From Sulfurospirillum sp. (GTDB taxonomy: Bacteria > Campylobacterota > Campylobacteria > Campylobacterales > Sulfurospirillaceae), in NCBI GenBank assembly GCA_045047115.1, contig JASFYR010000009.1, positions 64,001 through 128,000 on the forward strand: a stretch of 64,000 nucleotides of DNA, in the 5' to 3' direction. This document shows, in pieces, positions 21,001-24,000 of the stretch (within the stretch, counting starts at the first letter, position 1; each line of letters starts with the position of its first letter). Made by a program: the position numbers.

Positions 21001-24000
21001 GAATCAGGTATGCTAGATGATTTTATAGATAGAAAGCACGGAGTAAAAGAGATAGACTACTTTTATGATGAGTTTACAGAGCCGCTTGAGCCGATACTAA
21101 AGCCAACTTACGGAGTTATCGTCTATCAAGAACAGGTTATGCAGATAGTGCAGACCATAGGCGGCTTTAGTCTTGGTAAAGCAGATATTGTTAGAAGGGC
21201 CATGGGTAAGAAAAAGTTTGACTTGATGAAAAAGTATAAGGAGGAATTTGCAAACGGAGCAAAAGAGCAGGGCTACAAATACGAGCATGCTATGGAGCTT
21301 TTTGAGTTAATAGAGAAGTTTGCAGGATACGGTTTTAATAAATCCCACTCGGCAGCTTATGCGATGATCACTTTTCAGACCGCTTATCTGAAGTGCTACT
21401 ATCCGCAAGAGTTTATGGCAGCACTCTTGACAAGTGAACAGGACAATACAGACAAAATAGTAAAATATATAGATGAGGTCAAACGACTTGGCATAAAACT
21501 CTCCCCCCCAAATGTTAGAAAGAGTATGATTGAATTTACGGCTATAAAAGATGATGAGGGCGAAGAAACTATACTTTTTGGTTTAGGAGCATTAAAGGGT
21601 ATGGGCTCTTCTGCTATCACAAAAATTCTTGAAGCTAGAGAAGATGGCGGATTTGAAGATTTGGATGATTTTCTTTCTAAAATAGATACTTCAAAAGTAA
21701 ACAAAAGAGTTATAGAATCACTGATAAAATCAGGTAGTTTCGATGGTTTCTCTTATACCAGGAGGGCTTTGTTAGATAATATAGAGAAGATTGTAGATAC
21801 TGCGGGCGAATGTGCGAGAGCCAAAAAGATGGCAGAAAATTCACTTTTCGGTGATGATAAAGAGCTAATAGCTCTACATGTAGAGATAGATAATATTGCT
21901 GAATTTGACATGAAAAAAGTACTTGAGTTTGAGAAAGAGACTATGGGATTTTATGTCTCCGGTCATCCGCTAGATGAGTTTAGAGCAGAGATTGACGAGA
22001 TAGATTATACGCTATCGAGTGAAGTTGAAAATCTGGGTGACGGTAGTACGGCACTGTTTATCGGCAAAGTGGAAGAGATAGTAGAAAAAATCAGCAAAAA
22101 AGGAAATAAATTTGCGATTTTAAATCTTATGGACTTTCATGGCAATATTGAGATAACACTATTTTCAAAACATTTAGATAAGATACAAAACATGAACAAA
22201 GAAGAGCCAATATGTCTAAAAGTTGCAGTTTCAAGAGATGATAGAGGCATAAACAAAAGAGTCCTTAAAATTTTGGATTTAAAAGATGCCAAAAAAGAGA
22301 AGACGGACACAAAAACCATAGAAATTCCATCAGAACCAAAGACTCTCATTATAGACTTTAGTAAAGATAGCAGGATTTTGGACGATGTTTATAGGCTAGT
22401 AAGAGAAAATCCGGGAAACAGACCATTAAAACTTGTGATTTCCTCAAAACTCCAAGATGTAGTCATAGAGACATTTTTAAAAGTTTCAGACGAGATAGAT
22501 GATAAGATAAAAGAGATAGAAGAGGTAAAAGTAGCCTAAAATGATGGCGGCGTGATAGCGCTTATGTATGAGGCTCTTTGGTTACTTCTGTTTTCTATTT
22601 TATGTGGAACTTCTGGGTTAAATCTTATGCTGTCTCCCTCGTTTAAAGTGTAATTGAGTCCACCGATCTGGATCTCTATGGTACCGCTGAGTACAAAATC
22701 GCACTCCTCCCCGCCTTTTGTGTGTGGGAGTGCATCGTCTGTGACTCTGCCGGCTTCGAGTTCAACCAATACAAACTCAATATCTCCTTGAAGATCCGGT
22801 GTTAGCATTTCGCATTTGTACAATGGGTCAGGAAAGGAGATTTTTCTTCTTTCATTTTTTCTAACTATATGAAAAGATTCATAACTATTTTGTTGTTTCA
22901 AATCTTCTTTGTTTTCAAAAAGAGATGCCAAAGTAGTGTTTAAAACTTTTGCAATTTTTCTAAGAGTTTCGACCGAGCCCTGGGTTGAGCCTCTTTCAAG
23001 TTGAGAAATCATACCTGCGGTTATCTTTGCTTTTTTAGCCAACTCTTTTGTGCTTATACCCTTGGCAACTCTAAGTTTTTTTATTTTCTCTCCGATGTTG
23101 AAGTTCTCTTCCATCTTTATATCCTTCTTTTGGTAACATAATTATACCAAAATATATAAATTATTTAATAATATTAAAGTTATATTGTTTTTTATGCAAT
23201 ATTTAGTTAATATTATTAAATAATTTAATAGTATTAAAGGATTTGTTATGAAAATAGGTCTTATCAAAGAGATAAAGGTTCATGAGTACAGAGTTGGTCT
23301 TACACCTGATTGTGTTGCTTCGTACACTAGTGCTGGCCACACCGTATATGTAGAAAAAGGAGCAGGTGAAGGGGCGGGTTTTGGCGACGAAGAGTATGTC
23401 GATAAAGGCGGGATTATTGTAGATGAAAAGAAAAAAATCTTTGATGACTCAAATATGATTGTTAAGGTCAAAGAGCCTCTTCCACAGGAATATGATTTTT
23501 TCACAGAGGGGCAAATTCTCTATACATACCTACACCTTGCAGCTGATCCGAAACAGGCAAAAGCACTGATGGACAAAAAGGTAAAAGCAGTTGCCTATGA
23601 GACTATCACAGACAGTAACGGTCACTTACCATGTCTGACTCCGATGAGCGAGATAGCAGGGAGACTTGCCACTCAAGAGGGCGCAAAATATCTCGAAAAG
23701 CCTTTTGGTGGAAGAGGAGTTTTGCTAGGTGGAGTTCCGGGAGTTAAAAGAGGCAATGTTGTAATTATTGGTGGCGGTATAGTAGGTATGAATGCCTGTA
23801 AGATGGCTGTTGGACTTGGCGCAAATGTTACTATATTGGATATTGCAGCCGATAGATTAGCGTATTATGATGATATTTTTGGTTCGCAGGTCACTACACT
23901 CTACTCAAACAGGACAAATATACTAAATGCTATAAAAGAAGCAGATTTGGTTATAGGTGCTGTTTTGATTCCAGGAGCTGCTGCACCAAAACTTGTCTTG

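Follow-up and report, generated by a model that had tools for sequence, protein, structure and literature searches.

An iterated 14-base palindrome in Sulfurospirillum and its family, a possible self-DNA tag resembling HIP1 and uptake sequences

The uptake sequences of the Pasteurellaceae (USS) and the Neisseriaceae (DUS) are asymmetric words of 9 to 12 bases with about 1,000 or more copies (about 1,500 to 2,000 per genome); biased uptake of DNA that bears them has been shown, as has a receptor on the uptake machine, in Neisseria for instance the minor pilin ComP. The sites of Noc (NBS), SlmA (SBS), MatP (matS) and ParB (parS) are palindromes of 12 to 16 bases, present in tens to about 100 copies per chromosome, which are often located inside genes, are read by dimers and are either restricted to certain parts of the chromosome or kept out of them. 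For three decades the highly iterated palindromes of cyanobacteria have posed an unsolved problem, and the function of HIP1 (GCGATCGC), long a puzzle, has been connected with transformation only recently (PMC13756078; bioRxiv 10.1101/2024.09.10.611283). According to the available text of these sources, transformation of Synechococcus 7002 increases up to more than 100-fold with methylated HIP1 (bioRxiv 10.1101/2024.09.10.611283), while the abundance of HIP1 tracks the DNA-transfer apparatus (the authors' type IV secretion system) and a role as an uptake sequence was proposed (PMC13756078). The initial annotation of the DNA described here held that no uptake sequence is known in Campylobacterota, which does not agree with the case of Campylobacter jejuni, where only DNA with methylated RAATTY, a palindrome methylated by CtsM, is reported to be taken up (PMC10046745).

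We analysed a 64-kb window of a Sulfurospirillum genome (contig JASFYR010000009.1, positions 64,001 to 128,000), as well as the whole genome and its relatives, for the palindrome CTCTACATGTAGAG. Exact matching gave 32 copies genome-wide, located in unrelated ORFs and with flanks unrelated to one another, where 0.0075 copies are expected from base composition and 0.005 to 0.07 from Markov models of orders 1 to 5. Sixty sites with one mismatch and 84 with two were found in the whole genome besides these, while ten palindromes of matched composition and the reversed word, used as controls, gave no exact copy, 0 to 1 one-mismatch copies and 1 to 11 two-mismatch copies. The second-ranked 14-base palindrome, ATTTTTATAAAAAT, occurs eight times. 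The excess of CTCTACATGTAGAG is real and far beyond chance; the figures on which it had been proposed, 32 exact copies with unrelated flanks against about 0.01 expected and a runner-up with eight copies, were obtained again.

Extension of the core TACATGTA (188 copies in this genome against 19 to 77 expected) to 10, 12 and 14 bases left 52, 43 and 32 copies, respectively, and the 16-mers were split. CTC accounted for 141 of the 376 half-flanks of the core and information ended at position -4. Density in this genome is low: exact copies average one per 67 kb and cores one per 11 kb. The one-mismatch variants are mostly transitions (51 of 60), and the one-base variants of the palindrome cluster at outer positions. 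The degenerate motif T[CT]TACATGTA[AG]A gave 80 sites, 77 of them genic, as counted previously, when our own ORFs were used; these result from a crude call that covers 93% of the genome. The copies had been described as nearly all inside genes, and all 32 exact copies are indeed in ORFs, but this location is uninformative because ORFs span 93% of the genome and because 17 of the 176 sites with zero to two mismatches are intergenic, so that genic and intergenic copies both exist.

The window contains two exact copies and one one-mismatch copy, whereas none of 100 shuffles reached three, and ten TACATGTA cores, where the shuffle mean was 1.07 and the largest value 4 (100 shuffles). No strand is assigned to any of these sites. 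The first exact copy (21872..21885) is inside dnaE, as stated previously; the gene (19006..22539, plus strand) encodes DNA polymerase III alpha, as borne out by DNA_pol3_alpha, PHP, finger and HHH_6 matches. The site is read gct-cta-cat-gta-gag (A-L-H-V-E), and the orthologous codons in G011, a genome of the same genus that lacks the motif, are TCTTTGCATATTGAT (SLHID), with no gap. The dnaE gene is a bystander host and no part of a system. The other exact copy (14216..14229) is read in the LHVE frame as EGEKFALHVEDKKYY in an ORF for an HI0933-like flavoprotein (13792-15006, PF03486 match), and its orthologous codons in G011 encode IISHQ, again with no gap. The one-mismatch copy CTCTACATGTGGAG (15878..15891; A to G at position 11) is intergenic and lies 64 bases upstream of the first of two MutS-domain-V gene starts. 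A two-mismatch copy of the 14-mer is located at 14025..14038 (contig position 78025) and precedes the exact copy at 14216 by 191 bases, and two other two-mismatch copies, at 36462..36475 and 55525..55538, keep the core (36465-36472 and 55528-55535, respectively). Cores without full flanks are present at 27060..27067 and, five more times, at 54315, 57630, 58381, 62695 and 62873.

The reading frame of the 32 exact copies, all within ORFs, was LHVE for 27, STCR for 5 and the stop-containing frame for none, the same distribution as that previously reported. The peptide LHVE occurs 68 times against 0 to 13 times for its 23 permutations, and STCR occurs 11 times against 0 to 3 times for its permutations; codon and peptide statistics are thus distorted in these genomes, LHVE being about 17-fold over its permutations. 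Of the 68 LHVE peptides, 31 are encoded by CTACATGTAGAG, where codon usage predicts 1.2%, and CAC is used zero times. In gene orientation, the counts of one-mismatch sites were mirror-symmetric (10 and 8 at positions 3 and 12, 5 and 6 at positions 5 and 10, 3 and 3 at positions 1 and 14), with no deviation at the synonymous third positions 2, 8 and 11, and the mismatch spectrum was independent of codon position. This mirror symmetry and indifference to codon position point to a two-fold symmetric reader that acts on double-stranded DNA. Very probably it is strict at positions 2, 4 and 7 and their mirrors and tolerates transitions at positions 1, 3 and 5 and their mirrors; within genes, the stop-containing frame is avoided and the more tolerable peptide x-L-H-V-E favoured.

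Comparison of the 32 exact sites with motif-free G011 showed that 26 align, 25 of them without a gap and one with a two-codon gap, while six are unalignable. Substitution in place, which had been proposed from two sites, thus holds more widely (25 of the 26 alignable sites). Amino-acid identity with G011 was 0.35 for the site codons and 0.68 for the whole alignments, and at the corresponding places G011 has nothing closer than two mismatches. No insertion scars and no shared longer homologous flanks were found at the sites in this genome, and site positions are uniform along genes. Very probably, the copies are not insertions; they were made by point substitutions, synonymous and non-synonymous, wherever coding sequence was already near the word, and lineages without the force have decayed to background. 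Comparison of 57 sites of other species with this genome showed ten that are fully conserved, against 1.5 to 2.3 expected, while mean identity was equal inside the site (0.762) and in the flanks (0.758). The sites are kept yet turn over quickly.

The exact word was counted in 14 genomes of the genus, with 32, 5, 57, 102, 94, 12, 7, 24, 126, 93, 0, 0, 2 and 22 copies, whereas the reversed control word gave zero in every one of them, in agreement with the counts reported before. The core TACATGTA is enriched in 12 of the 14, the same 12 that have the exact word; G008 is the richest and G010 and G011 are motif-free. The initial annotation restricted the word to the genus and set it at 32 to 126 copies per genome. 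The restriction fails, since the exact word is present in 22 of the 46 family genomes sampled and the 14-base form CTYTACATGTARAG in 45 of the 46. The copy number appeared low because a single spelling had been counted; sister genera have 1,100 to 1,500 copies of the core, with a maximum of 1,520 per 2.7 Mb (one per 1.8 kb). By genus, 10 of the 11 genomes from another genus have the exact word (163, 39, 17, 11 and further copies), as do 1 of 20 from a second and 1 of 1 from a third. The exact C spelling is dominant, with 163 copies, in one species of another genus, and one genus contains both spellings; positions 3 and 12 are C:G or T:A depending on the species. Another family has about 610 copies of the core in 2 of 11 genomes, an occurrence that suggests transfer of whatever reads the motif. 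Very probably, CTCTACATGTAGAG is one dialect of a palindrome iterated throughout the family, with a footprint of 14 bases, CTYTACATGTARAG, a core, TACATGTA, and an origin by point substitutions in place.

The closest likeness is to HIP1 and the alternate cyanobacterial palindromes, which in the available text of Elhai 2015 (PMC4390886) are likewise genome-wide, present in genes and spacers, made by substitution, lengthened by less strict neighbouring positions, and in some lineages lost or exchanged for other spellings, with one-base variants concentrated at outer positions. The copies also constrain codons and peptides, as HIP1 does (LHVE 68 against 0 to 13; site codons 0.35 against 0.68). 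Unlike HIP1, the present word is AT-rich, belongs to a different phylum, in which it is an independent case, and has a footprint of 14 bases instead of 8. It is also sparser: an abundance of HIP1 type is about one per kb, against at most about one core per 1.8 kb in sister genera and one per 11 kb here. The word shares with USS and DUS a strict core with weaker flanks, an even spread, dialects between related taxa, tolerated reading frames in genes and a shifted peptide content, but it differs from them in being perfectly palindromic and in having 32 exact copies and 188 cores in this genome. The gaps between its sites have a coefficient of variation of 0.88. With the RAATTY mark of C. jejuni it shares the phylum and the palindromic form, and RAATTY decides what is self at uptake; RAATTY is a degenerate word of six bases read via N6-adenine methylation in the text available (PMC10046745), while the present one is 14 bases long, and the methyltransferase scans found none common to the genomes that carry it. 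Among the literature matches listed, there was no report of the word or of the core as a genomic signal in Campylobacterota, and those on highly iterated palindromes were cyanobacterial or, by title, unrelated.

HIP1 has DmtA and DmtC, whereas in the families scanned no cognate methyltransferase is common to the motif-bearing genomes. PF00145 is present in 2 of the 12 motif-bearing and in both motif-free genomes of the genus, and is absent from this genome and from G008. The sole DNA methyltransferase found in this genome by a motif screen of all ORFs, with Pfam run on five candidates, is a PF01555 enzyme on contig C41, whose homologues are limited to 3 of 13 relatives, G008 not among them; genuine matches to PF02086 and PF02384 are missing here, and no PF02086, PF01555 or PF02384 enzyme is common to G000, G008 and G003. 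A methyltransferase was rejected as the driver, as the PF00145, PF02086, PF01555 and PF02384 scans show no shared family, and in this genus a shared DNA methyltransferase does not appear to be the route.

Our best reading, to which we give a probability of about 0.4, is that the palindrome may serve as a self-DNA tag, similar to HIP1 and to uptake sequences, that would be read during the uptake or the recombination of transforming DNA. Tagged alleles would be preferentially taken up or recombined and hence would spread, by a molecular drive as proposed for USS and DUS. The more specific form, in which an uptake or self-recognition word would be read unmethylated as double-stranded DNA by a dimeric receptor, with the dialects as barriers or channels for gene flow, is tentative and somewhat doubtful. 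The uptake interpretation was already that of the initial annotation; what stands is a DNA-level, lineage-specific, substitution-built word resembling an uptake sequence. ComEC and DprA are present as noted previously, with two secretins, but ComEC, DprA and secretins were found in all five genomes tested, motif-rich and motif-free alike. A T2SS-type pseudopilin (T2SSG) is present in G000, G003 and G010 and absent from G008 and G011, and VirB4 was found in none of 14 genomes. None of these genes splits motif-bearing from motif-free genomes, and no candidate receptor for the word emerged among the competence and secretion genes checked. Several observations weigh against uptake. The symmetric footprint of 14 bases fits equally a dimeric DNA-binding protein with another job; classical USS and DUS are asymmetric, and the palindromic precedents, HIP1 and RAATTY, are methylation-based, yet none of the methyltransferase families scanned is shared here. 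Sites are not clearly scarcer in genes that lack a G011 orthologue (5 exact copies in 214 kb against 25 in 1,512 kb for the others), and density is low in this genome.

It is also possible, but unlikely, that selection keeps each copy as a site for a dimeric nucleoid-associated or chromosome-organising protein, either of the Noc, SlmA or MatP kind or architectural. A perfect 14-base palindrome with mirror-symmetric tolerance is the classic footprint of a homodimer, and like the sites of Noc, SlmA, MatP and ParB the word is often genic and compatible with reading by a dimer. Its 2 to 126 exact copies per genus genome are within the range of Noc, SlmA and MatP, and at some sites conservation exceeds expectation (10 against 1.5 to 2.3). 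However, such sets show regional confinement or exclusion, which is not seen here. We mapped 132 sites via orthologues onto the complete chromosome of G011 (origin at about 0, terminus at about 1.24 Mb), assuming conserved gene order, and their distribution over 12 sectors was even (chi-square p = 0.80), as was that of 89 mapped public loci (9, 4, 7, 6, 5, 7, 8, 14, 9, 3, 9 and 8 per sector). Neither set showed an origin or terminus bias; the exact and one-mismatch sites alone were somewhat sparse in two terminus sectors (6 of 70). No extra ParB was found: each of five genomes has one ParB_N protein, with the motif or without it, which leaves a Noc-type paralogue unsupported. Copy number varies about 100-fold in related species, the cores range from background to 1,520 among relatives and exceed 1,000 in sister genera, and in two species the motif has disappeared altogether. 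Positional conservation is lacking for most sites, and hundreds of sites made via amino-acid changes would need an advantage per site that is not known for such proteins. The Noc/SlmA-like set offered in the initial annotation as the rival to uptake therefore fares worse, given the lack of an origin or terminus pattern, the single ParB_N, the variation in count and the quick turnover.

A bias in repair or gene conversion, of the mismatch or very-short-patch type, that would turn near-cognate sequences into the palindrome, or restore it from them, while uptake played no part, is rather improbable. It would account for sites that arise by single substitutions in near-cognate sequence and for variants that are mostly transitions, and a model of this type, that of Elhai, exists for HIP1, the closest known case (PMC4390886, available text). 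The observed/expected ratio of CATG was 0.68 and 0.69 in the two motif-bearing genomes examined and 0.90 in motif-free G011, and this stronger deficit hints at a CATG-directed activity. The model nevertheless requires a cognate cytosine methyltransferase, while PF00145 is missing from 10 of the 12 motif-bearing genomes of the genus and the other methyltransferase families scanned are likewise unshared. The MutS-domain-V pair tracks the motif within the genus only; motif-rich sister genera lack it, and three motif-poor genomes of another family have it.

Chi sites are asymmetric, are read on a single strand and are oriented with replication. We consider it distinctly improbable that the word marks self DNA for a nuclease or a defence system, acting either in Chi-like modulation of a helicase-nuclease or in protection from CATG-directed restriction. 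The even genome-wide distribution, the lineage-specific dialects and the under-representation of CATG, which among the genomes examined was limited to motif-bearing ones, are in its favour, and a Chi-like mechanism is among those offered for HIP1 in the available text of bioRxiv 10.1101/2024.09.10.611283. The word is a perfect palindrome, unlike Chi, protection from restriction would erase a deficit and not create a 5- to 3,000-fold excess, and no candidate nuclease emerged. Selection for the peptide x-L-H-V-E or for an mRNA hairpin, with the DNA palindrome as a by-product, has a negligible probability and is already contradicted by the codon and mismatch data: although 27 of the 32 copies have one frame in common and the word can fold as a short RNA hairpin for genes on either strand, the host proteins are unrelated, five copies are read in a different frame, 17 near copies lie between genes, the codon choice for LHVE is fixed (31 of 68 against 1.2% predicted), the silent thirds 2, 8 and 11 are invariant while amino-acid-changing mirror positions vary, and the hairpin is not the conserved thing because RNA-pair-breaking changes are as frequent as wobble-keeping ones in one-mismatch sites.

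The question is testable because there are cultured family members, close relatives without the motif and two spellings that coexist within one genus. If the more specific reading, of a tag read unmethylated by a dimeric receptor, is true, HIP-type palindromes and uptake sequences would form one class of signals, with a second, culturable test system that offers natural motif-rich, motif-free and two-dialect variants, and the dialects would channel or bar gene flow between sulfur-cycling Campylobacterota. If the word gates uptake, its addition to constructs could ease the engineering of organohalide-respiring, sulfur-cycling bacteria.

Several other leads were followed and dropped. Viral contigs gave 66 stretches with a single copy each (two on one contig), about 13 of which share one homologous gene, and none resembles the genus. 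The intergenic copies were rejected as operators, the 17 near copies being in short spacers that adjoin unrelated genes. Genes shared with G138, one of the two motif-rich genomes outside the family, and lacking in G011 comprise those for rhamnose synthesis, sulfate activation, nitric-oxide reductase, IspG, DnaB, a MazF/Phd pair and HSP20, and none is a plausible reader in this incomplete comparison of 400 kb (19%) of G138. This genome has an extreme ACGT deficit; a link with it is ruled out because G138 is motif-rich yet has ACGT at 0.76. The MutS-domain-V gene pair and a STAS-like gene (15039-18965 in the window), with the near-cognate site upstream, were examined as well. The pair was rejected as the driver, since it is present in 0 of 34 genomes of other genera of the family, including G170 of the C dialect, is absent from the two motif-rich genomes of another family and, in a further family, occurs in 3 of the 6 motif-poor genomes. 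Within the genus, it lies between the HI0933-like gene and dnaE in this genome and in 10 of the 11 other motif-bearing genomes, while the spacing of these two genes without the pair is 230 bases in G010 and 35 bases in G011.

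Exact copies of CTCTACATGTAGAG were located in the window at 14216-14229, inside the gene of an HI0933-like flavoprotein, and at 21872-21885, inside the Pol III alpha gene (dnaE), where the initial annotation had placed its example, while a one-mismatch copy lies at 15878-15891, upstream of a pair of MutS-domain-V genes. At least three such copies occurred in 0 of 100 dinucleotide-preserving shuffles of the window. The source assembly (2.14 Mb, 41 contigs), of which the window is C9:64001-128000, contains 32 exact copies, when 0.0075 are expected from base composition and 0.005 to 0.07 under Markov models of order 1 to 5, and the runner-up 14-base palindrome, composed of A and T only, has 8. 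The 30-base flanks of the 32 copies showed no similarity to one another. All 32 lie within ORFs (by a crude ORF call, with ORFs covering 93% of the genome) and are read as x-L-H-V-E 27 times, as S-T-C-R five times and never in the frame containing TAG; a degenerate form of the word has 80 sites, 77 of them in ORFs. The counts of the word and of its degenerate form, and those across the genus, agreed on recounting with the initial annotation, so that the observation is borne out as real and conspicuous. Near copies with one and two mismatches numbered 60 and 84, respectively, compared to 1 and 7 for the reversed word and to 0-1 and 1-11 for ten palindromes with shuffled half-sites.

The 14-mer is only the fullest form of a broader, graded motif. 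Counts in the genome decreased from 188 for the 8-base core TACATGTA to 52 for CTACATGTAG, 43 for TCTACATGTAGA and 32 for the complete word, and 16-mer extensions divided among different flanks. The core is the most over-represented of all 8-base palindromes in the genome (188 versus 19 to 77 expected) and 141 of its 376 half-sites have C-T-C at -3 to -1, with zero information farther out. Since the flank information ends at C-T-C, the footprint of the motif is 14 bases.

The motif is family-wide and has dialects, defined by the spelling at positions 3 and 12 (C:G or T:A); its scope had been understated, and its restriction to the genus overstated. Within the genus, the core reached 61 to 527 copies in exactly the 12 genomes that carry the 14-mer, while the two genomes without it had 27 and 28 copies, which is background (reversed controls, 25 to 36). 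In a 151-genome sample of the order, core counts were high in the window's family (1,372, 648, 1,520, 1,223, 342, 109, 1,128 and 447) and in two genomes (608 and 611) among the 11 sampled from one other family, with a maximum of 61 in all other genomes. CTYTACATGTARAG was found in 45 of the 46 sampled family genomes, at up to 248 copies, when its reversed control was at 0 in all. The exact C spelling predominates in the window's genus (32 of 52 in this genome and 126 of 143 in G008, the congener with the most exact copies), occurs as one copy in one of 20 genomes of a sister genus, and accounts for most sites (163 of 212) in one species of another genus, while the congeners of that species use T (4 of 230). 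The usual form in G114 and G138, the motif-rich pair of the other family, is TTACATGTAA, and in 400 kb of one of them the core flanks were C/T/T. Among the matches listed, multi-copy public records bore the titles Sulfurospirillum, Campylobacteraceae or Campylobacterota.

We consider, with a probability of about 0.9, that the motif is an iterated palindrome of the HIP or uptake-sequence kind, which a force at the DNA level has created in place through a putative symmetric reader. Its nearest known kind is the highly iterated palindrome (HIP) of cyanobacteria. It has in common with HIP1 and USS/DUS a core with flanks, an even spread, tolerated frames, peptide distortion and dialects, but differs from them in its 14-base symmetric footprint, its modest density in the window's genus and the lack of a methyltransferase common to motif-bearing genomes. 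HIPs are tied to cognate methyltransferases, with a methyl-cytosine-dependent repair drive proposed by Elhai (PMC4390886). Two recent papers connect HIP1 with transformation: transformation of Synechococcus 7002 is reported to be up to >100-fold higher with methylated HIP1 (bioRxiv 10.1101/2024.09.10.611283), and HIP1 abundance is reported to follow a DNA-transfer apparatus, termed a type IV secretion system by the authors, who propose HIP1 as an uptake sequence (PMC13756078). Import by C. jejuni is reported to be limited to DNA with CtsM-methylated RAATTY (PMC10046745), so an uptake mark in Campylobacterota has a precedent. Literature searches, mainly of titles and abstracts, did not turn up any description of the word or of its core as a genomic signal. 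We tentatively favour a role as a self-DNA tag in uptake or recombination. The uptake signal proposed initially stands as far as the formal features shared with USS/DUS, but the competence genes tested do not separate motif-bearing from motif-free genomes: ComEC, DprA and two secretins were present in five of five genomes of both sorts. The presence of a T2SS-type pseudopilin did not follow the motif, and VirB4 was found in none of the 14 genus genomes.

The best-surviving alternative, a site set of a nucleoid protein, is nevertheless unlikely when the placement of the sites is considered. The chromosome of the motif-free congener G011 is complete (2,377,931 bases), and its GC skew clearly places the origin near 0 and the terminus close to 1.24 Mb. 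The 132 sites (0-2 mismatches) placed on it via orthologues showed an even distribution among 12 sectors (chi-square p = 0.80), as did the public loci with the word (89 of 123 mapped); when exact and one-mismatch sites alone are counted, 6 of 70 fall in the two terminus sectors, a slight shortage that was not considered significant. Sites were uniform along genes and not clearly scarcer in genes without a G011 orthologue. Noc-, SlmA- and MatP-type site sets are defined by regional distribution, whereas the present motif has no regional pattern, and one ParB_N protein was found per genome tested; the Noc/SlmA-like set put forward initially thus fares worse than the uptake reading.

A repair bias is less probable again, since cytosine-5 methyltransferases were not found in 10 of the 12 motif-bearing genus genomes; they were found in both motif-free ones. 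A single DNA methyltransferase was detected in this genome, a PF01555 member on contig C41. Homologues of it were found in 3 of 13 relatives, G008 not being among them, and none of PF02086, PF01555 and PF02384 was common to this genome, G008 and G003. We rate a self mark for a nuclease slightly lower than a repair bias. In the search for a reader, a filter for genes shared with G138 but lacking in G011, over 400 kb of G138, gave only housekeeping genes. A DnaB-like ORF outside the window (contig C31:18377-20824) has 815 residues, of which about 320 align to the C-terminal domain of G138 DnaB; an intein or a fusion might account for the surplus.

The MutS-domain-V genes were also considered as the driver of the motif. 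Window positions 15039-18965 form an insert of about 4 kb between the HI0933-like gene and dnaE, where G010, the other motif-free congener, has 230 bases and G011 has 35. The insert contains a STAS/SpoIIAA-like gene (15039-15809, minus strand) and a tandem pair of MutS-domain-V-only genes (15955-17484 and 17481-18965). The pair was matched in this genome and in 10 of the 11 further genomes of the genus that bear the motif, and was missing at the locus in G010 and G011, which, with the near-cognate site upstream, made it promising within the genus. It was rejected on a wider sample, in which it was found in 8 of 11 congeners and in three of six genomes of one genus of a further family, at no more than 60% identity. 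Outside the genus it does not follow the palindrome: it is lacking in motif-rich sister genera, in the motif-rich genomes of the other family and in G170, a C-dialect genome of another genus of the window's family, and those three genomes of the further family are motif-poor.

Comparison with G011 (1,541 orthologue-like genes, median amino-acid identity of 72%) showed how copies arise. Of the 32 exact sites, 26 were alignable and six had no alignment; 25 of the 26 were gap-free and the remaining one had a gap of two codons in a region of low conservation. The G011 peptides at these sites were often already near the word's translation (SLHID, TLHIE, SLHIE, SLQVE), and the word therefore arose through point changes in near-cognate sequence. 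Amino-acid identity was 0.35 at site codons and 0.68 over whole alignments. The tetrapeptide LHVE occurs 68 times in the genome versus 0 to 13 times for its 23 permutations, and STCR 11 times versus 0 to 3; LHVE is encoded by CTACATGTAGAG in 31 of 68 cases, when codon usage predicts 1.2%. The proteins have changed to suit the DNA word, and not the DNA to suit the proteins. When 57 sites of other species were aligned to this genome, 10 were fully conserved versus 1.5 to 2.3 expected, while mean identity was 0.762 inside the sites and 0.758 in their flanks, so that sites were either retained exactly or turned over; G011 always had at least two mismatches at those places.

One-mismatch sites were oriented by their host gene. 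In the LHVE frame (n = 40), deviations were mirror-symmetric about the palindrome centre, with 10 and 8 at positions 3 and 12, 5 and 6 at positions 5 and 10, and 3 and 3 at positions 1 and 14, respectively. This pattern fits a putative reader of double-stranded DNA with two-fold symmetry, which would be strict at positions 2, 4 and 7 and would accept transitions at 1, 3 and 5. Selection on a peptide or RNA is very improbable, since positions 2, 8 and 11, which are silent third positions of codons, had zero deviations while amino-acid-changing mirror positions did deviate, which makes the constraint independent of the codon, and since changes that break RNA pairs (G to A at position 12, T to C at position 10) were as common as their wobble-preserving mirrors, which counts against an mRNA hairpin.

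Copies of TTACATGTAA on contig C1 of G114 are often paired, with starts 14 to 20 bases apart (12692/12706, 54188/54205, 224420/224438, 267910/267928 and 392164/392184, for example); tight pairs were not seen in the window's genome, where sites with 0-1 mismatch are never less than 369 bases apart. The densest cluster of this genome lies outside the window (C24:21957-28733, five 0-2-mismatch sites in 6.8 kb) and covers genes of the sulfur-oxidation type and a nitric-oxide reductase cluster that has an Rrf2-type regulator; this reductase cluster is missing in G011 and 60-85% identical to G138. The exact 14-mer is also contained in 66 viral stretches (IMG/VR contigs), about 13 of which (L124, L126, L128, L138, L140, L153, L158, L162, L163, L167, L172, L176 and L181) have one homologous gene in common, whose similarity to a gene on contig C12 is weak (42-47%). 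In those contigs, the word looks like a conserved part of one phage gene family and not an iterated signal.

Other short words are biased in this genome. ACGT is near-absent (135 versus about 1,300 expected, observed/expected of 0.10), with CpG at 0.56, while the values in G011 were 0.81 and 0.90, respectively; this suggests a restriction or modification pressure directed at ACGT in this lineage. The deficit is not tied to the palindrome, because ACGT is at 0.76 in the motif-rich G138. GATC was equally low in this genome, G011 and the first 400 kb of G138 (0.36-0.38), while CATG was low in the two motif-bearing genomes only (0.68 and 0.69, again with the first 400 kb of G138, versus 0.90 in G011).
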